Assembly: GCA_012730105.1 (NCBI GenBank)
Contig: JAAYBJ010000003.1
Span: 13,450 to 77,449 of the forward strand
Origin: Candidatus Hydrogenedentota bacterium
GTDB lineage: Bacteria > Hydrogenedentota > Hydrogenedentia > Hydrogenedentales > CAITNO01
Direction: 5' to 3'
DNA: 64,000 bases
Under the pieces are notes generated by a model. It was not told where the DNA came from and did not search any database. It saw nothing but the letters and a program-made list of their open reading frames with translations. Shown piece after piece: positions 32,355 to 48,689 of the stretch. Every line of letters starts with the position of its first letter. Positions within the stretch are counted from its first letter, which is position 1. The position numbers were made by a program, and so were the translations under genes.

Positions 32355-33734
32355 TCAGACAGTGACGGACACCTTTTCCTCCATGATGGTAACGTTACGG
32401 ACACCTTTATCGCCCAGCCCGGAGCGAAGCGCTTCCAGCGACGCCGGTTCCCCATGCACCAGCAAAACCTTCTGATGTTTGCCCGGGAAACGCGCCCCGA
32501 AATCAATCAGTTCGGAGCGGCCGGCGTGGGCGCTGAAGGCGTTCATGATCTTCACTTCGGCTTTCAAGGGGCGTTTCACGCCGAAAATTTTAATTTCCGG
32601 CTGCCGTTCCACGATCCGGCGGCCCAAGGTGTTCTCGGCCATAAAGCCCACAATCAGAATGGTGTTGCGCGGGTCTTCGCAGTTGTTCCGCAAGTGGTGC
32701 AGTATACGGCCCACTTCGCACATGCCCGAAGCGGAGATGATGATACAAGGCTCCTTGAGCGTGTTAAGACGCATGGAATCATCCGCGTTCCGGACATACT
32801 CGATGTGGTTGAGTTCAAAAGGATCGCCGGCCGTACTCATTACCTGTTTGGTTTCCCGGTCGAACAACTCCGTGTGGTAGCGAAATATTTCCGTGATATT
32901 TACCGTCAGCGGGCTGTCGACATAAACCGGGATCGTGGGAATAGCACCATTCATTTCCAGGCGTTTCAGCGCGAATACGATTTCCTGGGCGCGTTCCAGC
33001 GCGAAGCTGGGAATGATGATTTTGCCACCCCTTCGGATGGTCGCCAACACTACCTCGGCCAGCTGCGCTTCCATGGCTTCAATGGGGTCATGGTCGCGGT
33101 CGCCGTAGGTGCTTTCCATAATGACGGTGTCGGCATCCTCGGGCACCCAGGGATCGCGGAGCAGAGGCATGTTTTTCCGGCCGAGATCGCCACTGAAAAG
33201 CAGGCGCCGCTCCACGCCATCTTCCTTGTAGTCCACCACCACCATGGCCGAACCGAGCACATGTCCAGCGTCCTGAAAGGTGACAAACACATCCGGAACC
33301 ACTTCAAAACGATCCCCATAGGGATACCCAACGAAATGCCGCATCGCTTCATAGACATCTTCTTCTTCATACAGCGCCGGAACAAATTCACGGTTTTTCT
33401 TCTGCAGCCATTCCGCGTCCCGCTTCTGGATGTTCGCGCTGTCCTGCAGCATCACACCGCACAGGTCATGGGTGGCCGGCGTCGTGTAAATGCGCCCCCG
33501 GTAGCCACTCTTATGAAGCATGGGAACCGTGCCCGTGTGGTCGATATGGGCATGGCTCAGCACCACCGCGTTCAGTTTTTCCGAGACGAAAGGAAAGGAC
33601 CGGTTCTTTCGGGCGGTTTCTTCGCGTTTGCCCTGGAACATACCGCAATCCAGGAGGATACGGTAGCCGTTGATTTCGAGAAGATGCTTGGAACCGGTGA
33701 CACCGCCCGCGGCGCCGTAAGACGTAATTTTCAT
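32355..33734 (-). CDS. MBL-fold beta-CASP ribonuclease (RNase J / CPSF-like)
   Basis: HxHxDH motif SHAHIDHTG and the downstream beta-CASP motifs. 459 aa. Confidence 0.9.
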   Translation of the reverse strand: MKITSYGAAGGVTGSKHLLEINGYRILLDCGMFQGKREETARKNRSFPFVSEKLNAVVLSHAHIDHTGTVPMLHKSGYRGRIYTTPATHDLCGVMLQDSANIQKRDAEWLQKKNREFVPALYEEEDVYEAMRHFVGYPYGDRFEVVPDVFVTFQDAGHVLGSAMVVVDYKEDGVERRLLFSGDLGRKNMPLLRDPWVPEDADTVIMESTYGDRDHDPIEAMEAQLAEVVLATIRRGGKIIIPSFALERAQEIVFALKRLEMNGAIPTIPVYVDSPLTVNITEIFRYHTELFDRETKQVMSTAGDPFELNHIEYVRNADDSMRLNTLKEPCIIISASGMCEVGRILHHLRNNCEDPRNTILIVGFMAENTLGRRIVERQPEIKIFGVKRPLKAEVKIMNAFSAHAGRSELIDFGARFPGKHQKVLLVHGEPASLEALRSGLGDKGVRNVTIMEEKVSVTV

Positions 33735-33858: not shown

Positions 33859-35424
33859 CTACGCTTCCTCCACCACCGTATAGCCCAGGGCATCCGCCAA
33901 GGCAAACACCGGTTCTTTCAAATCGCCGTAAAAAGTGACCCGGTGCCATCCCCACTGGTCCCATTGGGTGAACAGCTTTTCGATGTCGCCAATGGGCTCC
34001 GCGCACAATTTTGTGCGGCAAGCGCGGTCGTCGGGATCGTTGGCCACGGCTTTCGCCTGATGAAACAGAATTTCTTTGCGTTCTGGGCTTACCTCAAGTG
34101 AGGTTGTCATATAACCGCTCGGCAACAGGGAACGGACCGCGGCGCCCTGTCTGTCCTCTGAGTGGGTCAGTATGGAGAAGGGGTTTTCTATTCCCGCAGG
34201 GCCAAACGCCCGGTTTGAAGCCACGCAGTGGGCATAAATAATCTGACGTTTCGCGGTGTCCACCACCGGGTCAGAAATATACCCCGGCCGGCCCTGGGTA
34301 AGAGCCGTAAAGGTGGTCATGGTGGCCGTGGAACGCACGTCCGCTTCACAGGCGCCCACAAGACCTTCGTTGTTCAACTCGTGGAAACCGAGACAGGGAT
34401 AGGCGTGAATATGATTGCCGTAGAAACCGCCCAGGCAGTTAATCGTTATCGCGTTGGCGTCGTATTTGGCAAGGAGGGCTTTATTGGCGAGATACATGGC
34501 CGCCGACGTTTCCAGCGTTTCCCGCGTGACATCCGTAATAGAGGATGCCCGTTTTTCCCATCGGTCCGCAACTGCCCGCGCTTCATCCTTGTCGGCGGAT
34601 TCCCACAAGGCATTCAACTCTGAAAAGGCTACCTGGACCATGGGAATACCCATATAGGGGTCAAGCGCCTTGGATTCCTGGTCCCGCACCACCAAAATTT
34701 TGGAGGTTTTCATCCGTTCAATGCATTCGGTGGTCGACAGGGTTTTAAGCGGATCGGGAAGGCAGCCTAGGTCCCCGGGCGGAGGTGTGCAACCCCGGCG
34801 CGCTTGCGCGGTGGCGGCAACAAAGGCTGCAGGGGCGCCGCCATCCAGCACGGTCTTAAAACATTTCACCGCCGCGATCACATCATCCATGCGTGAAGAA
34901 GCGGCAAAACCCACATTGGGAGTTTGCTTACGGAGAAAATCCGCCGTATACACGAGGAAACCGCCGCTGCCACCGAACTGGAAGTCCACGTAAAGCGTGG
35001 GTTTTCCGGTTTCCGCGACAGTCTGGACGACACGATTCCAGCAGTTCAACTGATACACGATGTACCCTAATATGGATTCCGGGGCGTCTTCTTTAATAAT
35101 GGCGGCCGCCTCTTCGGGCCCCGTGGCCATTGACGGCACGAATTCGAATTCAGGACAGCTGTTGGCAAGGACGGTGTTGATCTGTTCCATAACCGGGCCG
35201 AAGGCGAAACCCACATTCGGCCAGTCCGGGCCAGGCTGTGTTTCCGCATGAAGCGAATACAGGATCCGAATGCGGGGTTTGTTTCCCGCGGACGCTGCGA
35301 ATACCGGGCGCGACGCGGTCATCAGCCCCAGAGCCCCAGCGCAGGCAGCACAGCCGGAGGCCAGGAAATTACGCCTTGATACACCGCAACACGCACAGCC
35401 GGTCAGGATAGGTGTGGATTCCAT
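33859..35424 (-). CDS. TAT-secreted hypothetical protein
   Basis: Twin-arginine motif SRRNFLASGCAACAGALG after the internal ATG at 35424. About 520 aa, no recognisable domain. Confidence 0.65.
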   Translation of the reverse strand: MESTPILTGCACCGVSRRNFLASGCAACAGALGLMTASRPVFAASAGNKPRIRILYSLHAETQPGPDWPNVGFAFGPVMEQINTVLANSCPEFEFVPSMATGPEEAAAIIKEDAPESILGYIVYQLNCWNRVVQTVAETGKPTLYVDFQFGGSGGFLVYTADFLRKQTPNVGFAASSRMDDVIAAVKCFKTVLDGGAPAAFVAATAQARRGCTPPPGDLGCLPDPLKTLSTTECIERMKTSKILVVRDQESKALDPYMGIPMVQVAFSELNALWESADKDEARAVADRWEKRASSITDVTRETLETSAAMYLANKALLAKYDANAITINCLGGFYGNHIHAYPCLGFHELNNEGLVGACEADVRSTATMTTFTALTQGRPGYISDPVVDTAKRQIIYAHCVASNRAFGPAGIENPFSILTHSEDRQGAAVRSLLPSGYMTTSLEVSPERKEILFHQAKAVANDPDDRACRTKLCAEPIGDIEKLFTQWDQWGWHRVTFYGDLKEPVFALADALGYTVVEEA

Positions 35425-35710
35425 GCTCAGATTCCTTCTCAAAAAGGGTTTATGGTGCCCAAACAAGGTACAGCCTGAAGACCATACTATACGTTCAATC
35501 CTTTCTTGGCATCAACTTTTTATAAAAACGGCTTTGCGTAAAAACGATCCTTATTATATCAATCTCCCTGTAATTTCACCTGTGTTTCCGGACACGGCAG
35601 GAACATTAAGGATATATCATTTAAATTGTGGTAGAATCAGTTCGTCTCGGTTTCTTAACCGGGACTGATGAAAAATGCCCATGTGTACGTATGGAGCAAT
35701 GGAGTCTTTC

Positions 35711-37087
35711 ATGAAAATCTGTAACCCGACACATTTCCTTGTCACCTTAACTTTTTTATACAGTGCGGCACAGTGCATTGAGCCGACTTCAGCCGGTGCG
35801 GACACCGCCGGTACGGAGTGGCAGGCGGGTGTGGCCCGTGTCGATATCACGCCAGAAGAACCTTTATGGCTTGGGGGGTACGCAGCACGAACGAAGCCGG
35901 CGGAGGGTACCTTGCACCCCCTGTGGGCAAAAGCCCTGTCCCTCAAAGATTCGGCGGGGAACCAGGCCGTGCTGGTGACCACGGACATCCTGGGATATCC
36001 CAGGGACGTGGCGGAACGGATCCGCGCACGGATCGAACAGGAATATGGTCTTCCCCGGGCAAACCTGATCCTCAGCGCTTCGCACACCCACAGCGCCCCC
36101 GTGATTGGCGCGTCACTGAAATGCATCTATGCCTTCGATGCCTCGGGAGAACAAAAATTAACCGACTATACGGAACAATTCGAGGACAAGGTAACAGCCC
36201 TTGTCGGTGAAGCGCTGGCCAAAATGGCGCCGGCATCTCTCGAATCCGGAAACGGCACCGCCCGCTTTGCCGTCAACCGGCGCAGCAACAAGGAAGGCGC
36301 CTTGACCGCGACCAGTCCGCTTCAAGGCCCCAATGACCATGCGGTGCCGGTTTTAAAGGTTATGCGAACGGACGGCGCCGTTGCGGCGATCATCTTCGGC
36401 TATGCCTGCCATGCGACAGTTCTGGACGGGTATCAGTGGAGCGGCGATTATCCCGGGTTTGCCCAGGCCGCCCTGGAAGCGCAATATCCAACCGCCACCG
36501 CCCTGTTTTTCGCGGGCTGCGGCGCCGACCAGAACCCCCTGCCCCGGCGAAGTGTCGCTCTGGCGCGTCAATACGGCGTCACGCTGGCGGCAGCGGTCGC
36601 TTGTGTGCTGGAAGGAACCATGACACCCCTGCCCCCCACACTGATAACAGGATACAAAGAAGTGGACCTGGCGCTGGAATCCGTGCCCGATGAAGCCGCC
36701 CTTCGCCAACGCGCGGAAAGCACTTCCGGCTATGAGCAACGCTGCACGGAAGACCTGCTTGCCCGGGTTACCCGTGAAGGAAGCCTCCCGGCTTCCTACC
36801 CGTATCCCGTACAAACCTGGCAGATGGGCGGGCAGACGCTAGTCGTTCTTGGCGGGGAGGTTGTGGTGGATTATGCCCTTGCCATCAAGGAGCGCCTTGG
36901 ACAGAACGCCTTTATCATGGCGTATGCCAATGATTTAATGGCGTACATTCCTTCGGAACGTGTTCGGGAAGAAGGAGGCTATGAAGGGCAAGGCGCGCAA
37001 ATTATTTACGGGTTACCAAGTCCCTGGGCGGACGGACTGCAGGAGCGCATTCTCAGCGAAATATGGAATCAGGCGGGAATAAAATAG
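35711..37087 (+). CDS. Neutral/alkaline ceramidase N-domain-like secreted hydrolase
   Basis: Signal peptide. LWLGGYAARTKPAEGTLHPLWAKALSL resembles the conserved N-terminal region of non-lysosomal ceramidases. GGAG RBS. An alternative start lies at 35699. Confidence 0.65.
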   Translation: MKICNPTHFLVTLTFLYSAAQCIEPTSAGADTAGTEWQAGVARVDITPEEPLWLGGYAARTKPAEGTLHPLWAKALSLKDSAGNQAVLVTTDILGYPRDVAERIRARIEQEYGLPRANLILSASHTHSAPVIGASLKCIYAFDASGEQKLTDYTEQFEDKVTALVGEALAKMAPASLESGNGTARFAVNRRSNKEGALTATSPLQGPNDHAVPVLKVMRTDGAVAAIIFGYACHATVLDGYQWSGDYPGFAQAALEAQYPTATALFFAGCGADQNPLPRRSVALARQYGVTLAAAVACVLEGTMTPLPPTLITGYKEVDLALESVPDEAALRQRAESTSGYEQRCTEDLLARVTREGSLPASYPYPVQTWQMGGQTLVVLGGEVVVDYALAIKERLGQNAFIMAYANDLMAYIPSERVREEGGYEGQGAQIIYGLPSPWADGLQERILSEIWNQAGIK

Positions 37088-37258: not shown

Positions 37259-39718
37259 GTGAAACCAACCGGCTTAGCGGGGAGATTGGGAACCATGGGT
37301 ATTTCTTTGTCCGGCATTACGCACGCAGGACAAAACCTGCGCAAACCCGTGCTGTTGACTTTATTGGGGGTTTGCATTGAGATTGAAGTTGTAATCGCGA
37401 GTTTTATACTGAGTGAGGTATGGCGAGAGTGGGGACGCGGGCTTTTCGGTTCCACTAAAATCTATCACCAGTGGCATCAAGGCAATTCCTTACTTGGCCT
37501 GTTCGGTTCCCTTATCCTGGTTTTGGGTGTGACTTCATTTAGCCGGAAACTGCGCATCAGCCGCGCGGCTTTAAACTGGGTTTATGTTGCCGGCGGCTTC
37601 CTTATTATCCTGAAGTCCTTCGATGTGGTAAATACAGTCTTTGTGGATTACATGGACCGCTTGTTTGAGTCCTATCCGGATATGGATAGTTTCATTAACA
37701 ATCTGCTTATATTATGCGGTTGCCTAACTGTGCTGGTCGGCCTCATGTGGGCTATGTATGATATCAGCCGTCTGAACATCACCCTTTCCGAACAGAACGC
37801 CCAGCTGGACCGGGAAATGCAAGAGCGCTCAGACACGGAATCACGGCTTTCCGTTCAGGAAAAGCGCCTGTCCTCAATATTACAGGCCTTGCCTTCGCCT
37901 GTTTTTCTGTTAAATATAGATGGTTTCATACTGGCGCATAACAAGTTTTTTGCCTTGCTGTGGGGACGGGGGGAAGAGAATTTGGTGGGTCTGCACCTGA
38001 GGCAGGTACTGCCGGAAGCATTGTTTGAAAGGGGAAAGTCCTTCTCAATGCGGGTGTTTGAAAGAAATGCCCCCGAGAATTACGTTGTAAACATCAGCAA
38101 CCGGACTTACGAAATCAATACCTATCCCACCATGGACGAGGAAGGGAACGTCCCTTCCATCACGGTGCTTGCCCTGGACATTACGGACAAACTCCGCGGA
38201 GAAGAAGAGCGGCGCCTGCTGCAGGAAGCCGTAAACAGCGCCGCCGAAAGCATTATCATCGTGGATGAAACCGGCCTGATCGAATATGTCAACCCCGCCT
38301 TCGAGGAACAGTCCGGCTATTCCCGAAAAGAAGTTCAAGGTCAGCTTTATAACCTTATGCATAGTGAGGCGCTTGATGAAGCGTTGATCCAGGAGATAAA
38401 GGACACCCTAGAACAGGGCAAGTCCTGGCGCGGCCGCCTGATAAGCCAAAAGAAGGATGGCGCGCTCATGTATGAAACCGCCACCATTTCACCCATAACG
38501 AACCAGGACGGCGTCATCAAGCATTACGTGTCCGTAAAACGGAATATCACCCGGGAACTGCAGTTGGAACAACAGTTGCAGCAGGCGCAGAAACTGGAGG
38601 CCCTGGGCACCATGGCCGGGGGAATCACCCATAACCTGAACAACGTACTTGCCATTATTCTCGGCCGGTCCGAACTCGGCGCGCAAATGCTGGAGGCGGA
38701 AAATCCCGCCCGGGAAAATTTTGAAATCATCATGCGCACCGCGGCCCGCTCCTCCGACATGATCAAACGGTTGTTGACTTTTTCACGCAAACAGGCCGGG
38801 GGAATGAAGCCCGTGGAAGTCGCTCCCCTGATCCGCGAACAACTGAGCCTGATGCGCAATTATCTTCCGAGCAATATCACTATCCTTGAAGCCATTTTGC
38901 TGGACAAGGAAATCATCATCGCAGACGCGGTGGAATTGCAGCAGGCTTTCGTGAATCTTATCAACAACGCAAACTATGCGATGCAGCCTGAAGGCGGCGA
39001 ACTCGAAATCGGACTGGATAAAGTTTGCATTGACAATGAACTGCTCGCCACCACGGGCATGCTCAGCCCGGGCGATTATGTACGCCTTCGTGTCCGCGAC
39101 ACGGGCTGCGGCATGGACAGCGACACGCAGATGCGCATGTTCGATCCGTTCTTTACGACCAAGGCGGCGGATGAGGGCACCGGCCTGGGACTGCCCATGG
39201 TGCATGGGAGCGTGCTGCGCGCAGGAGGACAGATCCAGGTGGAAAGTGCGCCCGGCAAGGGCACTGAAATAAGCCTTTATCTGCCCGCGGCTGAAGAAAC
39301 GGCACGAGGCATTGAAGAGGCCTCGCTGGAAATGCCGGTTTCGGGAAGGGGTATTACGGTCATGGTGGTGGATGACATGGCGGATTTTTCTGACTTGCTC
39401 ACCATGAACCTGGAATATTTCGGTTTCGAAGTATGCTCCTTTTCGGATCCCGAAGAGGCAATGGCCTTCTTCAGCGACAACCCGGACATGGTCAAAGTCG
39501 CCGTGCTGGACTACATGATGCCCGGGATGAACGGCAAGGATCTCGGCGCTGCGTTAAAGAACATCCGGCCCGGGCTGCCCCTGGTGTTGCTAAGCGGTTA
39601 TGCCTGCGGTATTACCAACGAAAACGCGCGCGATTTCGGTTTCAGTGCCATGTTTGACAAGCCGGTTGAAATTTCCACGCTTGCCCGAATGCTAGCGAGT
39701 CTGGTTTCCCAGTCCTGA
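37259..39718 (+). CDS. Membrane-anchored PAS-domain hybrid sensor histidine kinase with C-terminal receiver domain
   Basis: N-terminal TM helices; two PAS-like regions; HisKA H-box HNLNNVLAIILGRSEL; HATPase_c motifs (DTGCGMD, GTGLGL); receiver D in VAVLDYMMPGMNG. The start may instead be the ATG at 37295. Confidence 0.9.
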   Translation: MKPTGLAGRLGTMGISLSGITHAGQNLRKPVLLTLLGVCIEIEVVIASFILSEVWREWGRGLFGSTKIYHQWHQGNSLLGLFGSLILVLGVTSFSRKLRISRAALNWVYVAGGFLIILKSFDVVNTVFVDYMDRLFESYPDMDSFINNLLILCGCLTVLVGLMWAMYDISRLNITLSEQNAQLDREMQERSDTESRLSVQEKRLSSILQALPSPVFLLNIDGFILAHNKFFALLWGRGEENLVGLHLRQVLPEALFERGKSFSMRVFERNAPENYVVNISNRTYEINTYPTMDEEGNVPSITVLALDITDKLRGEEERRLLQEAVNSAAESIIIVDETGLIEYVNPAFEEQSGYSRKEVQGQLYNLMHSEALDEALIQEIKDTLEQGKSWRGRLISQKKDGALMYETATISPITNQDGVIKHYVSVKRNITRELQLEQQLQQAQKLEALGTMAGGITHNLNNVLAIILGRSELGAQMLEAENPARENFEIIMRTAARSSDMIKRLLTFSRKQAGGMKPVEVAPLIREQLSLMRNYLPSNITILEAILLDKEIIIADAVELQQAFVNLINNANYAMQPEGGELEIGLDKVCIDNELLATTGMLSPGDYVRLRVRDTGCGMDSDTQMRMFDPFFTTKAADEGTGLGLPMVHGSVLRAGGQIQVESAPGKGTEISLYLPAAEETARGIEEASLEMPVSGRGITVMVVDDMADFSDLLTMNLEYFGFEVCSFSDPEEAMAFFSDNPDMVKVAVLDYMMPGMNGKDLGAALKNIRPGLPLVLLSGYACGITNENARDFGFSAMFDKPVEISTLARMLASLVSQS

Positions 39719-39857
39719 CACTCGCGTGGGATCCGGAAATCCCGGTTCGTCCCGCCACTTGTGGGCCCTGTTTTTTGTATGGTACAGTGAGGCTGCCGAT
39801 TTCACGTTGGTCCTGCGCAAAGACGGGGCCGGTGTTCCTGGCGATAAAGGTGCCCAG

Positions 39858-42197
39858 ATGAAATCCCAACTGATTCCTTCTCTGCTTCTGGCAATACTTG
39901 CGGCGGCATGTCCCTCTATGGGCACGGCGGATGACCAGCCTGAAAACCGGCCGGACGCCCGGCACCACCAGCGCCTGGTGGAAGACGACTGGCAGCTGCA
40001 GGAAGCGCGTCAGGGCCGGAACGCGGGAAGCCTGGAGGCGGTGCGCGCCGCCATGGTCAGGGCGGAAGCCCTGTACCAGGATCTTTCCGGGGTTGCCGGG
40101 ATGGAAGACTGCCGGGAACAAATGGAACTGTTCGCCCGACAAGTGGGCCGCGCCGAAGCCATGGAAGACAGCGAACGCCTGGCGCTTTATTACGCCCTGC
40201 GCTGGTTCACCCGCGAACTGGCGTTGCAGAATCCGCTGATCGCCGACACACCCCTGGTGTTCATGCAACGGCGCCGTTTCATCTGCCAGATGCTGCATGA
40301 ATATCTCGGCTATTATTATGATTACGGGGATATTGAAGGGGGCGGTGTCTTCATCCTCGAACAGCCCGGCAAGTCCTTTGCCGCGCGCGAACTGGTCCGC
40401 GGACGACTGCCACGGGGCAATTACACTACCCTGGCGCTTTCTTATGACGCAAAAACCATCCACTTTGCATTCGCGCCCCGCGCACCCGGGGAAAAACCGG
40501 ATTTCTATTCCGGTGAACGCCGCTGTTTTCATTTGTACAGCATGGACAGCGACGGAAACAACCTGCGGCCGCTGACGGAAGGACCTGACGACGATTTTGA
40601 TCCCTGCCCGCTGCCGGACGGCGGCATCGCGTTCATGTCCACCCGACGGGGCGGTTTCACGCGCTGCAACAACCCCTGGGAACCGCTGCCCGCCCACACG
40701 CTGCACCGGCTGGACCCGGACGGCGCAGTCCGTTGCCTGTCTTATCATGAGACCAGCGAGTGGCATCCGCAGGTGCTCCATGACGGGCGGATCGCCTACA
40801 TCCGATGGGACTATGTGGACCGTTCGGCGGCGCATTTCCACGGCATCTGGGCCACCAACCCCGACGGGACCGAAACGCGCCAGATTTTCGGCAATTATAC
40901 GCAACGGATCAACGCCTGTTATCAGCCGCATCCCGTGCCGGGTTCCCGCCGTCTGGCCTTTCTTGCCGGGGCCCATCACGCCAATGTCGGAGGATCACTT
41001 GTACTATTCGACCCCGCCAAAGCCGCCTTCGACCCCGCGACCGGGGAAGACGATTTCGGTTCCCTTGAACCGTTAACGCCGGAGGTATGTTTCGCGGAGA
41101 CGCCGGACGTGTGGCCTGAATCCTATTTTCACAGCCCCTGGCCGCTTTCAGAAGGCTATTTCCTCATCAGTTTCTCTTTTGATCCCCTGCCAGGCATGAG
41201 CGCCCGTACGAAAGAAGACACCGAAACGGGCATCTATCTGTGGGACCGGTTTGGAAACCTGGAACTCCTGTACCGTGAGCCCGGCATCTCCTGCATGTAT
41301 CCACTCCCCTTGAAACCACGGCCGATACCGCCCGCGCTGCCAAGCCGGCTTGATCCAACACTGGGCGATTCAGGAGAGTTTTATCTCGCCAATGTGTATG
41401 AAAGCCATTTACCATTCCCTAAAGACCGGCCGATCCACGGCTTGCATATTTATCAACTCCTGCCCAAAAGTGAAACGCATGTGGCCAACCAGCCGCGTAT
41501 CGGGTATGCCAATGCGGAATCCGCCCGGATGCTGCTGGGTTTCGTGCCGGTCGAAAAGGATGGTTCCGCCCGTTTCAAGGCGCCCGCCGGGAAACCGCTC
41601 GCCTTTCAGGCCGTGGATGAATCCGGCCGAGCGGTGCAGGGTATGCGCAGCGCCGTGTACCTGCAGCCGGGCGAACGCCGGAGTTGTGTGGGCTGCCATG
41701 AATCTCCGGAACGATCCGGAACTGTTCCCTTAGGAAAACAGATCGCCTTCGGCCGCGGGCCTTCCGAGATTACGCCCGGCCCGGACGGCGTCATGCCGTG
41801 GAGTTTTCCCAGGCTGGTGCAACCGATTCTGGACACGCACTGCGTCCGCTGCCATGGCGAAGCGGGCAATGCAAGACCATGCCTTGAGGCGAAGGTACAG
41901 GACGAATTTACTGAGGCTTACACCGTGCTGAAACCTTACGCGCGCTGGTACGAATGGGGCGGGGAAAGCATCAGCATAATTGTAACCCGTCCGGGCGAAA
42001 TGCCCGCCGACGTGAGTCCATTGACCGCCATACTGAATGATGCCAATCACGCGTCCGAACTGCGCCTGCCCGAGGCCGCGCAGCGAATCCTGTACTTGTG
42101 GCTGGACGGTAACGCGGCGTTTTACGGAACCTACTCGCCGACCGAGCGGCTCGCCCAGTTTGAAGGCAGTAAGGTGCCGCCTCCCGCGCTGCAGTGA
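39858..42197 (+). CDS. Secreted beta-propeller protein with C-terminal Planctomycete-type cytochrome c (PSCyt1-like) region, double CXXCH
   Basis: Signal peptide MKSQLIPSLLLAILAAAC. TolB/HzsA-like propeller segments. CVGCHESP and FPRLVQPILDTHCVRCHGEAGN, the latter matching the PSCyt1 consensus (V/I)xPILxxxCxxCHG. Confidence 0.8.
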   Translation: MKSQLIPSLLLAILAAACPSMGTADDQPENRPDARHHQRLVEDDWQLQEARQGRNAGSLEAVRAAMVRAEALYQDLSGVAGMEDCREQMELFARQVGRAEAMEDSERLALYYALRWFTRELALQNPLIADTPLVFMQRRRFICQMLHEYLGYYYDYGDIEGGGVFILEQPGKSFAARELVRGRLPRGNYTTLALSYDAKTIHFAFAPRAPGEKPDFYSGERRCFHLYSMDSDGNNLRPLTEGPDDDFDPCPLPDGGIAFMSTRRGGFTRCNNPWEPLPAHTLHRLDPDGAVRCLSYHETSEWHPQVLHDGRIAYIRWDYVDRSAAHFHGIWATNPDGTETRQIFGNYTQRINACYQPHPVPGSRRLAFLAGAHHANVGGSLVLFDPAKAAFDPATGEDDFGSLEPLTPEVCFAETPDVWPESYFHSPWPLSEGYFLISFSFDPLPGMSARTKEDTETGIYLWDRFGNLELLYREPGISCMYPLPLKPRPIPPALPSRLDPTLGDSGEFYLANVYESHLPFPKDRPIHGLHIYQLLPKSETHVANQPRIGYANAESARMLLGFVPVEKDGSARFKAPAGKPLAFQAVDESGRAVQGMRSAVYLQPGERRSCVGCHESPERSGTVPLGKQIAFGRGPSEITPGPDGVMPWSFPRLVQPILDTHCVRCHGEAGNARPCLEAKVQDEFTEAYTVLKPYARWYEWGGESISIIVTRPGEMPADVSPLTAILNDANHASELRLPEAAQRILYLWLDGNAAFYGTYSPTERLAQFEGSKVPPPALQ

Positions 42198-42204
42198 GTG
42201 AGGC

Positions 42205-42252
42205 GCACTGTGGACGATATGGACAGTATGGACGATATGGACAAGATGGACC
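42205..42252 (+). repeat. 9-bp-periodic ATGGAC tandem repeat (x5: acTGTGGAC GATATGGAC AGTATGGAC GATATGGAC AAGATGGAC)
   Basis: Direct reading. Lies immediately after the stop of the upstream gene and supplies four in-frame ATGs at the 5' end of the UDG ORF. A related repeat lies at 60249..60283. Confidence 0.75.
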
Positions 42253-42836
42253 GCGCGCTCGCACTTTGCCTTAAACGGGTGCGCGCCTGTCGCCGTTGCG
42301 CAGCCGCGCTGCCCTTGGGTCCCCGGCCCATTGTGCGCGCCCGAATCACAGCGCGTATCCTCATCGTTGGGCAGGCGCCCGGCCTCAAGGTGCATCAAAC
42401 AGGTATCCCATGGAACGACCCGAGCGGGGACCGCCTGCGCCGCTGGCTCGGCCTCGACCGTGAACAATTCTATGATGAGTCCCGGATCGCCATCATCCCA
42501 ATGGGCTTGTGTTATCCTGGTCGCAACCCACAGGGAGGTGACCTGCCGCCGCGAACGGAATGCGCTCCGGCATGGTTTCCTAAACTGCTCCCCCTCCTGC
42601 CAACTATTGCAACAACGATCCTTGCCGGCGCCTATGCCCAGAATGGGTACTTGGGTGAAAAGACAAAACCCACTCTGACGGAAACTGTCCGGAACTGGCG
42701 CGCCTATGCACCGGAATACTTCCCGCTCCCCCACCCCTCGTTCCGTAACAATCAGTGGCTGAAAAACAACCCCTGGTTCGAAGAGGAACTCGTGCCCGCG
42801 TTAAAGGCGCGGCTCCGCGAAATACTCAATTACTAG
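42219..42836 (+). CDS. Uracil-DNA glycosylase superfamily protein
   Basis: GQAPG motif in LIVGQAPGLKVHQTGIPW and C-terminal FPLPHPSFRN, typical of UDG-family enzymes. True start ambiguous (ATGs at 42219/42228/42237/42246; the GTG at 42198 is the ORF-track start). Confidence 0.75.
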   Translation: MDSMDDMDKMDRALALCLKRVRACRRCAAALPLGPRPIVRARITARILIVGQAPGLKVHQTGIPWNDPSGDRLRRWLGLDREQFYDESRIAIIPMGLCYPGRNPQGGDLPPRTECAPAWFPKLLPLLPTIATTILAGAYAQNGYLGEKTKPTLTETVRNWRAYAPEYFPLPHPSFRNNQWLKNNPWFEEELVPALKARLREILNY

Positions 42837-43131: not shown

Positions 43132-44943
43132 ATGATGAAGAAAAATGTGTTTATCTGCGTGTTGATTCTGGCGATTACAGGTCCGGCCTTTGCCGTGCAT
43201 ACCCCGGTACCGGATATGGATTCCTGTCCACCAACAGTGGACGAATACGGCACACCCATCAACTGGAACTTTGTTCCGCTGCCCCTGTTCAATATCAATG
43301 TGCTTGGCAGTACTGTAAATTTTACACCCATTGCCGGACAAGTGGACTTCTGTGCCTATACGGACATCATCTTTTGTTCCCTGGGACCTGTGGGGGATTT
43401 GGTACCTGAGGTAATGGCTTTTGCCAACCTGGTGCAATGCAACGGATTTAAACGGATTTACGAATGGACCTGTCCCTGCACAAGTACGGTACAAACAGGC
43501 GTGGTGCCGGACGGTGAATGTGTCACTTATGTTGAAGGAGAGACTTCGGAAGGGGAGATCGCATGTCAGCAAGAGTGGGTGCGGGGCAGTCTGGTCGAAA
43601 GTATCCCCGTGCACATGGATATCAATGGTCCTATTGACTTACAGGCGGAACTGCCAGTCACCGGCAACGGCATTCCGGACGGCCAGTATGAGCTTGGAAT
43701 TCTTGCGGCCATTTACAATGACGATACCCATCCCCTGCATGCAACCGTGGTTGCCGCCTATCAGGCGAACTATAAGGCGGTCAAAGATTTAATTGTGGAT
43801 GCCCTTGCCGCCGCGAATTTAAAAAATGACAAAGACCTTCGCCCGATTGTACAATCCGTCGCGCCCTATCTGGTAAGGGCTTTAAGCTCGATTCTGGCCG
43901 GCTTTGCCACTATGGCTGATCCCCAAACTAATATGGCGCTCGACCAGTTGCTTTTGCTGCTGGCGGAAATTGGTATTGCCCCGCCCGAGGGCGGCATAGC
44001 CGGGATTGCGACAGGTATTCCCGAACTGGGGCCGGAAGGCGACGCGGACGGCGGCGGCGCCACCAACCGTCAGGAGTATGAATACTTTGTAACAGTACTC
44101 GGCTATGGTCCGGCCGAGTACGTGGCCGCCGCTCTTGATCCCGCACAGGAACCGCCCGTGGAGAATGAAGGCGAAACTGAAACAGAAGGCGAAGGCGAAG
44201 CGGTGCCTGAAGGGGAAGGCGAAATCGTCGCCGAAGGTGAAGTGTCGTCCGAAGGCGAGGGCGAAGGGATGAGTGAAGGCGAAGCCCCATACGAAGGTGA
44301 ACCCTCCGGGGAAGGCGAGTTTGAATCTGAAGGCGAGATACCGGCCGAAGGGGAAATCGTTGTAGAAGGCGAGGGTGAAGCCGCTGCTGAAGGTGAAATC
44401 GTTGACGAAGGCGAGGGTGAAGCCGCTGCTGAAGGCGAAATCATTGAAGAAGGCGAGGGTGAAGCCGCTGCTGAAGGCGAAATCGTTGAAGAAGGCGAGG
44501 GTGAAACCGCTGCTGAAGGCGAAATCATTGAAGAAGGCGAGGGTGAAGCCGCTGCTGAAGGCGAAATCGTTGAAGAAGGCGAGGGCGAAGCGCCTGCAGA
44601 AGGTGAAGGCGAAGCGCCTGCAGAAGGTGAAGGCGAAGCGCCTTCAGAAGGTGAGGGTGAAATCGTTGCCGAAGGAGAAGGAGAAGCACTTGCAGAAGGA
44701 GAAGGTGAAGTCATTGCCGAAGGAGAAGGAGAAGCACTTGCAGAAGGAGAAGGTGAAGTCATTGCCGAAGGCGAAGGAGAAGCACCTGCAGAAGGTGAAG
44801 GCGAAGACGAGACTTCCAGCTGCTGCGGCACCTCTGGGAAAGACATGAACATCAGGAAACTCATGGACCGCACCATCGGTGATTGGTTATTAATCGGCAT
44901 GAGTCTGTTGGGATTGACGGCATTCTCCCTTGTCCGTAAATAA
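43132..44943 (+). CDS. Secreted acidic-repeat protein A: signal peptide, ~320-aa unique domain, ~215 aa of EGEGExxA-type tandem repeats, Cys-rich/GDWLLIG C-terminal anchor module
   Basis: Perfect GAAGGAGG RBS. Signal peptide [20 protein letters not shown]. Repeats run from about residue 340. C-terminus [42 protein letters not shown]. Confidence 0.85.
44160..44810 (+). repeat. Coding tandem repeats (24-bp basic period, 42-bp super-period) encoding [12 protein letters not shown](V/I)(E/D) units
   Basis: Direct reading. Generates frame-artefact ORFs on both strands (SPSPS... and KAKSLKK...). Confidence 0.8.
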
Positions 44944-45440: not shown

Positions 45441-48400
45441 ATGAAAAAGATACTGGTAAGTGTTTTGGGTCTTGCGATCTGCCTGCTGCCGATGGCGGTA
45501 TTTGCCGCTCCCGGTGATGTGCCCATGCCGGATACGGTCCTGGAGGCTGCCGTTGAAGCGGAAATCGGCGATGACGGGGTCAGCGGCGCTGTGGACAGCA
45601 CCCTGCTGCTGAACCTCGTCCAATTGGGCGGGCTCGATGATTTTCCCAACCAACTGGTCACCGGCGTAACGGACTTAACGGGGCTGGAAGCGGCAACAAA
45701 TCTCGAGTTTTTGCTGTTGTTAAACGGTGATATCGACAGTCTGGAACCAGTTGCGGATTTGCCCGCCTTAACCGGCCTGGCCCTGTTCGATATGGGCGTT
45801 GAGGACGCCGATGTGGCGGAACTTGCCGCCGGAACCGCTGAACCTGTTGCGTTACTGATTTCAAACCTGGGAACAGGAACTCCGAACGACCTGACCACCA
45901 CGGGTATTAATAGTATTGGTCAGATCGGCAGTATTGTGGAACTGTCTCTGTCGGGCTTGGGAAATGAATTTGACATCTCAGGTTTAAGCACCTTGTCGCT
46001 GGGGGATTTGGGTTTTGGTCTTGGACTGTCCATGGACGGCAATACCATTGTGGACGGGTTTGAAGTTATCGCCGGGTTTACAGGCCTGACGGCGCTTTCA
46101 CTTGGCCAAACAGGCATTACCAGTGCAGACTTGGACCTCGTTGACTGGTCCCTGATGACCAGCCTGGGGGAATTGCTGCTGCCCTTCAATGCCATTACGG
46201 ATATTTCCATGTTGCTGGATCTCGGAGCTCCGTCCGGCGCAATTATAGACCTTGCCGGCAACCCCCTTGATAATGCCGCTGTATGTACGCATATCCCCGC
46301 GTTAGTAACTGCCGGTTATACCGTTTTGGATGGCCAGGTTCTCCCCTGTGGTTCCCCAGTACTTACCCTGACTCTGAACGGTGTAGGCGAAATCAATCCC
46401 GCGCCAGGTGAGTACCGCTATGAGGTCGGTACGGAAGTGTTTCTAAATGCCAACCAGATCAGCGGCGGTGGTGTTTTTTCCCATTGGACTGGTGACGTGG
46501 CGGATCCTAGCAACCCGAACACCAGCATCGTCATGAATGCAGACGAGGCTGTGGAGGCGGTGTTTGTGGATGGCGACTATACATTGACGATCCAGTACGC
46601 CGGGGACGGAACGGGCGTTACCTCTCCCCCGGCAGGCGTATGGGCCTATCAGGACGGGGCTTCCGTTGGCTTGAATTTTACCCCCGACCCGGGCAATTTC
46701 TGGGGCGGCTGGCAGGGGGATCTTACGGGCATTATCGCCAATACGATCATCATGGACAGCGACAAAACGGTTACGGCCGTATTCGGCGCCACAGGTTATG
46801 ATTTGATCATCGGCGTAAATGATACAGATCTGGGCTTTACCTTTCCGGTGATGGGCACGTATCCCCTTGCAACGGGAACCGTGGTGGATATCAACGCGAT
46901 TGTGGACTTCTCCGAGCCAACCTATATTTTCGGTGAATGGACCGGTGATATCGGCACGGCCGATCCTGCCAACCCAGAACTGCAGGTCACCATGGACCAG
47001 GCGCGTACCGTCACCGCCAACTTCAGAAAACCTGAGTTAACCATCAGCATCACTGGGGAAGGGACAACGAATCCCGTACCGGGAGTATATCCGTATGACA
47101 ACGGCGCCTTTGCCGCTGTGACTGCGACACCCGCCGATGGATGGTTTTTCGTCGGTTGGCAAGGTGATGCGGAAGGGGCAGGTGAATTAAATATTTTGAT
47201 GGACGGCGACAAGGCGGTAACAGCGGTATTCGAACAGATTCCCGTCTATACGCTGACCATTAATGCCGCTGATGGTGGTTCCACTAATCCGCCAGCGGGA
47301 AGTTATCCCTATGATGAAGGTGCCGTTGTGGAAATAACTGCCACACCGGAGACAGGATGGCAATTCCTTCGCTGGGAGGGCGACGTTACCAGTACCGACC
47401 CCTCCACTTTGGTTAATATGGATGGCGATAAAACAGTAACGCCCGTTTTTGAAATTTTATCCTACGATGTCACCATTAATGTTGTAGGCAATGGAACGAC
47501 CTTGCCTGCCGCAGGTACCTCTCCATGGGATTACGGGTCGGTAGTGATGATCACGGCCACTCCTGCAACTGGATGGCAATTTGTACGCTGGGAAGGCGAC
47601 TTTTCTGTTCCGAATCCGGAAGTGCCCAACTTCGCTGAAGTAGAAGTGGACGGTCCGAAAACCGTAACCGCGGTGTTCGAACAGATTACCTATACACTGA
47701 CTATTTCAGTGGCAGGCGATGGCACTACAGATCCCCCTACAGGCGGGGTTTACACTTCAGGTACGCCTGTAACGATTACAGCCCAGCCTGCGGATGGTTG
47801 GAACTTTGCCAGATGGGAAGGGGATGTTTCCGGTACGGAATCCACACTATCGTTCACTATGGATAGCGACATATCCGTTACGGCGGTCTTTGAAGAGCAA
47901 ATAATTGAAGGCGAGGGTGAAACCCCTGTTGAAGGCGAAGGCGAAGCCCCTGTTGAGGGTGAAGGTGAAGAACCCATTGAAGGCGAAGGCGAAGAGCCCG
48001 TCGAAGGCGAAGGTGAAGAACCCGTCGAAGGCGAAGGCGAAGAGCCCGTCGAAGGCGAAGGTGAAGAACCCGTCGAAGGCGAAGGTGAAGAACCCGTCGA
48101 AGGCGAAGGTGAAGAACCTGTCGAAGGCGAAGGCGAAGAACCTGTCGAAGGCGAAGGCGAAGAACCTGTCGAAGGCGAAGGTGAAGAACCTGTCGAAGGC
48201 GAAGGTGAAGAACCTGTCGAAGGCGAAGGTGAAGAACCTGTCGAAGGCGAAGGTGAAGAACCTGTCGAAGGTGAAGGTGAAGCCCCTGTCGAAGGCGAAG
48301 GTGAAGAACCTGTCGAAGGCGAAGGTGAAGAACCTGTCGAAGGTGAAGGTGAAGCCCCTGTCGAAGGTGAAGGCGAAGAGCCTGTCGAAGGCGAAGGCGA

Positions 48401-48689
48401 AGAACCTGTCGAAGGCGAAGGTGAAGCCCCCGTTGAGGGCGAAGGTGAAGTAACCGCCGAAGGCGAGGGCGAAGAACCTGTCGAAGGTGAAGGCGAAGAG
48501 CCTGTCGAAGGCGAGGGTGAAACCCCCGTTGAGGGCGAAGGCGAGGGCGAAGAAGAAGCCTGCGGTTGCTGCCAGCAGAATGAAAAAGCCCTTACCATAA
48601 AAGAAATGGTAGAAAAGAGTTTGGGCGACTGGCTGTTAATCGGCGTAAGCCTTCTTGGACTTACGGCTTTGGCCGGTATGCGCAAATAA
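45441..48689 (+). CDS. Secreted acidic-repeat protein B, internalin-like: signal peptide, leucine-rich repeats, about 8 InlB-B-repeat (Listeria-Bacteroides repeat)-type domains, about 27 copies of EGEGEEPV, Cys-rich/GDWLLIG C-terminal anchor
   Basis: AAAGGGA RBS. Signal peptide [25 protein letters not shown]-like LxxLxxLxLxxNxI segments. Repeated YTLTIxxxGxGTxxPxxGxYxYxxGxxVxLxAxPxxGWxFxxWxGD modules. C-terminus [43 protein letters not shown]. Confidence 0.85.
47905..48555 (+). repeat. Near-perfect 24-bp coding tandem repeats (GAAGGCGAAGGTGAAGAACCTGTC x about 27) encoding EGEGEEPV
   Basis: Direct reading. Copies differ mostly at synonymous third positions (gag/gaa, ccc/cct, gtc/gtt). Confidence 0.85.

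Follow-up and report, generated by a model that had tools for sequence, protein, structure and literature searches.

The gene at 39858..42197 (+) in the 64,000-nucleotide stretch of a Candidatus Hydrogenedentota contig analysed here (JAAYBJ010000003.1; hereafter the window) probably encodes an exported dihaem c-type cytochrome that is a full-length homologue of HzsA, the alpha subunit of hydrazine synthase (HZS), but is not itself a hydrazine synthase. We take it to be a redox enzyme, or a subunit of one, that belongs to a large orthogroup of mostly stand-alone genes. The open reading frame (ORF) marked out by an earlier, sequence-only reading of the window is real, and in the ORF list it translates to 779 amino acids followed by a stop codon. 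A database entry (P0001) is 100% identical but has 823 amino acids, its gene call starting at GTG 39726. We favour ATG 39858 over this longer start because a predicted signal peptide begins there, because the sequence AAGGTG lies 5 nucleotides before the ATG, and because the N-termini of 20 orthologues agree with it. The features of the gene are as follows.

39847..39852 (+), Shine-Dalgarno-like AAGGTG, 5 nucleotides ahead of ATG 39858, read from the sequence
39858..42197 (+), complete HzsA-like dihaem gene, from the ORF, its translation, the identical entry P0001 and homologues
39858..39935 (+), Sec-type signal peptide, residues 1-26, MKSQLIPSLLLAILAAACPSMGTADD, by inspection
39954..40226 (+), N-terminal four-helix domain, residues ~33-123, from the AlphaFold model
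40245..41357 (+), six-bladed TolB/PD40-type beta-propeller, residues ~130-500
41511..41702 (+), HZS_alpha middle domain PF18582, residues 552-615, Pfam 78.5 bits, E 6e-22
41643..41645 (+), Met596, candidate sixth ligand of haem I on the grounds of conservation, with Ala opposite in the 5c2v_A alignment
41685..41699 (+), first CXXCH, for attachment of haem I, C610-V-G-C-H614, with the conserved E615 after it, retained by all 98 superfamily representatives
41790..42194 (+), C-terminal helical cytochrome-c-like domain, residues ~645-779, from the HMMER alignment, helices in the model and a sub-threshold Cytochrome_CBB3 match
41841..41855 (+), second CXXCH, for attachment of haem II, C662-V-R-C-H666 within FPRLVQPILDTHCVRCH, retained by 97 of 98 superfamily representatives

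The protein has what defines a c-type cytochrome, namely conserved CXXCH motifs and an export signal, the signal peptide being judged by inspection. A variable hydrophobic N-terminus of the signal-peptide kind is present in all 20 aligned orthologues. There are exactly two CXXCH motifs in the protein, starting at nucleotides 41685 and 41841, whereas ~0.009 would be expected by chance for its composition. The double-CXXCH region described in the sequence-only reading is found where it should be, with FPRLVQPILDTHCVRCHGEAGN at residues 649-670 and CVGCHE at residues 610-615. The distance of 45 residues given there for the upstream CVGCHE needs correction, since the two motifs are 52 residues apart from Cys to Cys and 47 residues lie between H614 and C662. 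In the general ORF scans of the window no Ccm or ResBC genes were noted.

PF18582 HZS_alpha was the sole significant match in the Pfam scan that the sequence-only reading had proposed as a check, scoring 78.5 bits with the full sequence and 81.8 bits with the matching region alone, compared to a gathering cut-off of 26.6 bits. The sole match among PDB sequences was 5c2v_A, the HzsA of Kuenenia stuttgartiensis (phmmer 2.9e-6, profile 5.4e-15). Both haem regions align with 5c2v_A in HMMER, the middle domain with residues 499-565 and residues 641-689 with residues 642-692, and FPRLVQPILDTHCVRCH stands opposite FRRDIQPILDAKCAMCH of HzsA. In a Foldseek comparison the AlphaFold model of the window protein aligned with 5c2v_A over its full length (804 columns, E 2.6e-24, template modelling (TM) score 0.55, 17% identity), while the next match, to TolB, was 15 orders of magnitude weaker. 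The Pfam and PDB results therefore bear out the likeness of the propeller to TolB and to the HZS alpha subunit, which had been suggested from the sequence alone, and show that a further lead, to the PSCyt1 family, was mistaken. The protein is not TolB itself. Its score with the TIGR02800 equivalog is 11.5 bits, the cut-off being 343, and it has only the propeller fold in common with TolB, a haem-free component of the Tol-Pal system whose N-terminal domain is different.

The three domains of HzsA, that is the propeller, the haem alpha-I middle domain and the haem alpha-II C-terminal domain, are all present in the window protein. It is similar to HzsA (kuste2861; PDB 5C2V chain A) in this three-part architecture and in length, but has in addition an N-terminal helical domain, with helices at residues 33-51, 59-76, 82-97 and 104-123 that are modelled with a predicted local distance difference test (pLDDT) score of more than 90. 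Judging from the alignment and the model, the C-terminal domain (residues ~645-779) is the equivalent of the haem alpha-II domain. The model as a whole has a pLDDT of 73.9 and a predicted TM score of 0.76, and is free of cofactors. The loops modelled with the lowest confidence (pLDDT <50) are the most conserved ones, at residues 144-155, 269-275, 319-326, 373-378 and 538-553. This is suggestive of loops that would pack round a haem or other cofactor missing from the prediction.

In HzsA, zinc is bound by His587, which belongs to the first CXXCH, and the five-coordinate catalytic haem alpha-I is ligated by Tyr591, four residues past this His; haem alpha-II has two His ligands and sits in a class I cytochrome c fold (PMC12607021). 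Cys303 makes up the zinc site together with His587. In the window protein the first motif and the residues that follow it read CVGCH-E-S-P-E-R, the position of Tyr591 is taken by Glu618 and is variable, and no Tyr occurs within six residues after the first CXXCH in any of 21 orthologues. Other non-anammox homologues likewise lack Tyr591 (Hagglund et al. 2025, PMC12758564), and Cys303 is not conserved in other homologues either (PMC12758564). The NCBIfam equivalog hydrazine_alpha (NF052339) gives 40.2 bits against a cut-off of 800, and the match covers residues 555-616, the middle domain, alone. No HzsBC-like gene was found in the window by tblastn with three HzsBC-like queries (nothing better than E 0.68), and the window holds no other candidate c-type cytochrome with a CXXCH motif. 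Unlike hzsA, the gene has no adjacent hzsBC, and its host is a heterotrophic member of the Hydrogenedentota, not an anammox planctomycete. The genes around it include GH95-like, GH127, GHL6, 3-keto-disaccharide hydrolase and GlcNAc (N-acetylglucosamine) 2-epimerase-like genes, and the gene set of the window is that of a glycan-degrading heterotroph. As far as can be judged from sequence, the HzsA-specific haem ligation has been lost and the protein is not a hydrazine synthase; haem I is most probably ligated by the canonical His614 of the CXXCH. Three residues of the window family near this motif differ in HzsA, in which M596 is replaced by Ala, E606 by His and E615 by Tyr. Since all three are replaced, the surroundings of haem I mark the precise point at which HzsA departs from the superfamily. 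Together with the absent Tyr591 they offer a concrete picture of how a hydrazine-forming haem may have evolved from an ordinary c-type site.

The family to which the window protein belongs is large. A word-indexed search returned more than 2,274 homologues, of which the best 120 are full-length (~770-790 amino acids), 60-79% identical and carry PF18582 as their only domain. In their sources they are named 'hypothetical protein' or, rarely, 'hydrazine synthase alpha subunit-like'. A relative is encoded in at least 596 GTDB species genomes, in a scan of one genome per species. Among the 80 best genome loci, 55 are from Planctomycetota (including Phycisphaerae, Sedimentisphaerales, Pirellulales and Thermoguttaceae), 13 from Verrucomicrobiota, four from Hydrogenedentota, five from unclassified sources and three from other taxa, and the four Hydrogenedentota loci are the top matches, with up to 78% identity. 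The orthogroup occurs in anaerobic glycan-degrading lineages, the Hydrogenedentota, Planctomycetota, Verrucomicrobiota and Omnitrophota, and is 60-79% identical across these phyla, which is unusually high for a protein of no known function. Because it is so conserved and is found in hundreds of species, gut and bioreactor lineages included, it is a good target for biochemistry.

When 1.84 billion cluster representatives were searched exhaustively with a profile, the wider superfamily comprised 16,045 clusters at 50% identity with E<=1e-3, and 1,897 with E<=1e-30. Paired CXXCH motifs ~50 residues apart are found in nearly all of its full-length members. Many of the cluster representatives have 900-1,300 amino acids and added domains. 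For example, P0122 has an F5/8 type C domain at its N-terminus, P0196 has C-terminal HEAT repeats, and P0143 has two alpha-like modules within a single chain. In P0175, alpha-like, PKD, PA14, propeller and CCP/MauG-type dihaem parts, that is the equivalents of both alpha and beta-gamma, are joined in one chain of 2,267 amino acids.

Across 98 representatives whose identity to the window protein is 32-54%, conservation reaches at least 95% at 46 positions, and these cluster in the loops of the propeller and round haem I. They include R263, E301, R316-W317-D318-Y319, R322, W331 and D336 in the propeller, D568-G-S570, Q584, M596, C610, G612, C613 and H614 in the haem I region, and P656, C662, C665, H666, W748 and D750 in the C-terminal part. 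A further five residues, C270, H373, H374, E606 and E615, are 85-95% conserved. The conserved propeller and haem I residues persist in paralogues that are ~30% identical. This pattern of conservation resembles that of an enzyme.

Homologues of this kind have been described before, and within a known Pfam family the window gene is unexceptional. Non-anammox homologues of the HZS alpha subunit were studied by Hagglund et al. 2025 (PMC12758564), and 'hzs-like' genes by Dalcin Martins et al. 2023 (PMC10732223). The proteins in these two papers are, like ours, dihaem proteins with the HZS_alpha domain and without Tyr591, from Planctomycetota and other anaerobes. Their authors regard the homologues as unable to make hydrazine and suggest that they may use other substrates, and a broader family of hzs-like enzymes with other substrates has been proposed (PMC10732223). 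Both papers selected genes that are co-located with beta-gamma homologues and called the alpha homologues few, whereas genes of the window orthogroup mostly stand alone and are far more numerous (at least 596 species genomes; 1,897 clusters at E<=1e-30), and the orthogroup keeps both haem sites and is conserved at 60-79% across phyla. Among the clades I-IV of PMC12758564, it may correspond to clade IV. What we add is the scale and conservation of this stand-alone orthogroup, its presence in the Hydrogenedentota, and the identification of superfamily-invariant residues that are replaced in HzsA.

From these data we infer that the window protein would be a redox enzyme of the periplasm, or a redox subunit of one. 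A pocket may be formed by the propeller loops (R316-W-D-Y-x-D-R322, H373-H374, E301 and C270) and the haem I region (M596, E606, C610-H614 and E615), and this pocket would bind a small substrate, while haem II would trade electrons with an external periplasmic partner. By analogy to HZS and to CCP/MauG partners, our leading guesses for the substrate are small nitrogen or oxygen species such as nitric oxide (NO), hydroxylamine or peroxide. In this connection it may be mentioned that in one locus, from an Omnitrophota metagenome-assembled genome (MAG; L006:5079-9764), the orthologue is directly preceded, on its own strand, by genes for an Rrf2-family regulator and a hybrid-cluster protein (Prismane/Hcp), a context that hints at NO or hydroxylamine stress; as a single case it was not used as evidence.

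Several points weigh against this reading. Generic cytochrome c models remain below threshold, and the only one to appear was Cytochrome_CBB3, with 15-17 bits where 27 are required. For haem II the sixth ligand is ambiguous; H731 is present in 19 of 21 orthologues but in only about half of the superfamily. All the mechanistic parts, including the haems, the ligands and the activity, are putative, and so is the closeness of M596, the propeller loops and haem I to one another. Finally, a protein of this type may not act alone, since a few relatives have an HzsBC-like gene as a neighbour.

A possible, though less probable, alternative to catalysis at haem I is that both haems serve purely for electron transfer, haem I with His614/Met596 ligation, and that the chemistry is done by the propeller, with a metal or organic cofactor bound to the invariant His, Asp, Glu, Arg and Cys residues. 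The protein would then resemble the propeller dehydrogenases that are fused to cytochrome domains. M596 is at least 95% conserved throughout the superfamily, paralogues of ~30% identity included, and is Ala in HzsA, in which haem alpha-I is five-coordinate; this fits a methionine-ligated haem I, as the location of the conserved H373-H374, E301, D318, D321, R316, R322 and C270 in the propeller fits a cofactor there. But no cofactor-binding family scores on the sequence, and the position of M596 relative to the haem iron is itself conjectural.

A second alternative is a variant of the reading that we prefer. It is that the window protein is the alpha-type subunit of a non-anammox HZS-like alpha/beta-gamma complex, and we advance it only tentatively. 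The partner would combine a YncE-type propeller and a CCP/MauG-type dihaem domain in one chain, and its gene would lie in another part of the genome. Orthologues that are 62-64% identical adjoin a gene for a two-CXXCH protein of ~610-615 amino acids in three loci (L012, L013, where they are 34 bp apart, and L016). The best NCBIfam match of the neighbour in L013 is to the HZS beta-gamma fusion (186.5 bits), followed by beta (143.6 bits) and gamma (90.2 bits), and since all of these scores are far under the cut-offs this neighbour is a distant homologue of HzsBC. Conservation within the beta-gamma-like family is at 64-70% identity, and the taxa named for it are the same as those of the alpha-like family. 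In the metagenome contigs L088/L089 an orthologue (65%), an alpha-like paralogue (32%) and a beta-gamma-like gene stand in a row, and in a complete Phycisphaerales MAG chromosome (CP070675.1) both genes are present, ~2.1 Mb apart. The joining of alpha-like and beta-gamma-like parts in P0175 also favours such a complex, as does the description of co-located alpha and beta-gamma homologues in PMC12758564, from which an HZS-like complex in non-anammox bacteria has been proposed. Other observations speak against it. The 64 kb of the window contain no beta-gamma-like gene or other CXXCH protein, adjacency within 6 kb was found in only three of 80 genome loci, and no Hydrogenedentota name is among the 120 best beta-gamma-like matches. 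In L088-L092, moreover, beta-gamma has as its immediate neighbour not the orthologue but another paralogue with ~30% identity to the window protein, and in three metagenome contigs other than L088/L089 this ~30% type alone stands beside beta-gamma, with no orthologue. Because alpha-like and HzsBC-like genes are co-located in some relatives, an HZS-like complex in non-anammox bacteria is, on sequence grounds, plausible. HZS-like clusters of uncultured non-anammox bacteria are located at L088/L089:2578-9911, L090:5365-9848 and L013:4480-8682.

More speculatively, the window protein may represent the common, ancestral type of the HzsA fold, a widespread periplasmic haem enzyme of anaerobic heterotrophs that acts alone or with an unlinked HzsBC-like CCP/MauG partner, that performs a new chemistry on a small nitrogen or oxygen substrate, and from which HzsA is derived. 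We consider this rather unlikely as a whole. If it were true, HzsA would have arisen by losing the canonical ligands of haem I, with the His turned over to zinc and Met596 changed to Ala, and by gaining Tyr591.

The genes on either side of the HzsA-like gene are the following.

37259..39718 (+), membrane-anchored PAS-PAS-HisKA-HATPase-REC hybrid kinase gene, directly upstream of the HzsA-like gene
42198..42836 (+), uracil-DNA glycosylase superfamily gene, starting at the base after the HzsA-like stop codon

The adjacency of the hybrid kinase, as pointed out in the sequence-only reading, is real. That reading took it as a hint of a redox- or haem-linked periplasmic sensor or enzyme. That the protein works as a sensor of this sort and signals to the kinase is very unlikely. 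The two genes are on the same strand, with a gap of 139 bp to the ATG, or of 7 bp if the GTG start is used, and a homologous kinase is also upstream of the orthologue in L008 (Hydrogenedentota) and L048 (Planctomycetaceae). We surveyed the context of the orthologues by all-against-all BLAST clustering of the ORFs of 86 loci and by a Pfam search of 110 immediate neighbours. With the window contig, the kinase is upstream in only three of the 86 loci, HATPase_c occurs in two of the 110 neighbours, and the other Hydrogenedentota orthologues have unrelated neighbours. As the kinase is present in so few loci, its adjacency is better regarded as local synteny than as a conserved functional unit, and we reject coupling to the kinase on this ground. 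The genes are also separated by a weak hairpin followed by a T-run at 39751-39765, and identity of 60-79% across phyla is more in keeping with an enzyme than with a sensor accessory peculiar to one lineage. Scans for promoters and terminators round the gene gave weak consensus matches only.

No neighbour family was found in more than 11 of the 86 loci, so none is conserved, and the HzsA-like gene usually stands alone. The commonest neighbour cluster, in 11 loci and at variable positions, consists of Gfo/Idh/MocA oxidoreductases. These we take to be abundant in the genomes that carry the orthologue (an estimate, not a computed value), and their recurrence is therefore probably background. An iron-containing alcohol dehydrogenase gene lies directly downstream on the same strand, at 10-260 bp, in seven loci (L018, L020, L023, L024, L047, L052 and L082). 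These are confined to the Phycisphaerae/Sedimentisphaerales and related Planctomycetota, and by inspection the dehydrogenases have no signal peptide. Since 42198 directly follows the stop codon, the uracil-DNA glycosylase superfamily gene may be co-transcribed with the HzsA-like gene. The ORF downstream of the orthologue in another Hydrogenedentota MAG (L007, 78%) may be its cluster mate, in a BLAST cluster of two loci. Two genes upstream of the HzsA-like gene there is a neutral-ceramidase-like gene (35675..37087, +). A ceramidase-like gene adjoins the orthologue, in divergent orientation, in three loci from Planctomycetota/Phycisphaerae (L025:4547-5836, L026:245-1948 and L029:191-1477), a weak recurrence of four in 86 loci.

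It is highly improbable that the protein is a planctomycete cytochrome c domain protein of the PSCyt1 type that marks an organism of the Planctomycetes-Verrucomicrobia-Chlamydiae (PVC) superphylum, as the sequence-only reading had proposed. PSCyt1 usually accompanies a PSD1/DUF1549/DUF1553 architecture, which is absent from the window protein. The proposal rested on the likeness by eye of F-x-R-x-V-Q-P-I-L-x-x-x-C-x-x-C-H to the short motif of PSCyt1, of the form F-x-x-x-V-x-P-I-L-x-x-x-C-x-x-C-H; both families occur mostly in PVC genomes. The PF07635 hidden Markov model does not, however, match the whole protein at E<=1 or the isolated C-terminal 144 amino acids at E<=10, and the same motif occurs in the haem alpha-II region of HzsA. 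The sequence-only reading was to be refuted if the region scored with neither PSCyt1 nor a cytochrome c model; half of this came true, since PSCyt1 gave no score, and the generic cytochrome c models gave only sub-threshold ones. The family is rich in PVC members, with Planctomycetota or Verrucomicrobiota accounting for 68 of the 80 best loci, yet to judge from its relatives the gene is not diagnostic of that superphylum. Neither a tRNA nor any other taxonomic marker turned up in the window, and its taxonomy was therefore drawn from protein matches. The best matches of a beta-CASP metallo-beta-lactamase protein (32355..33734) are 86-87% identical, and the named ones are almost all from Candidatus Hydrogenedentes/Hydrogenedentota. 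These matches, and the 78% identical best matches of the HzsA-like protein in Hydrogenedentota MAGs, place the window in the Hydrogenedentota, and the gene cannot serve as the PVC marker for which it had been taken.

That the gene encodes a genuine HZS alpha subunit in a cryptic anammox organism, as the PF18582 match might be read where this family serves as an hzsA marker in annotation pipelines (PMC9325076), is practically out of the question given the equivalog score, the 17% identity to 5c2v_A, the missing Tyr591, the absence of hzsBC from the window and the neighbouring genes for glycoside hydrolases and other heterotroph functions. Because the non-anammox family is so abundant, hzsA calls in metagenomes that are based on PF18582 risk false anammox positives. 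Such false signals are to be expected in bins of Hydrogenedentota, Planctomycetota and Verrucomicrobiota, in which the family is far commoner than true HzsA.

Three other proteins of the window may be mentioned. The gene at 33859..35466 (-) encodes a protein of 535 amino acids with a twin-arginine-like signal (SRRNFLASG...). It has no Pfam match, and in NCBIfam only a weak one, to sulfoquinovose isomerase (43.7 bits; cut-off 700). Two large secreted proteins, encoded at 43132..44943 and 45441..48689 (+), contain long acidic GEGE-x-x repeats and have no match to the NCBIfam models of C-terminal sorting signals. They share a C-terminal module, a Cys-rich patch followed by ...GDWLLIG[MV]SLLGLTA...RK, which looks like a sorting or anchor signal.

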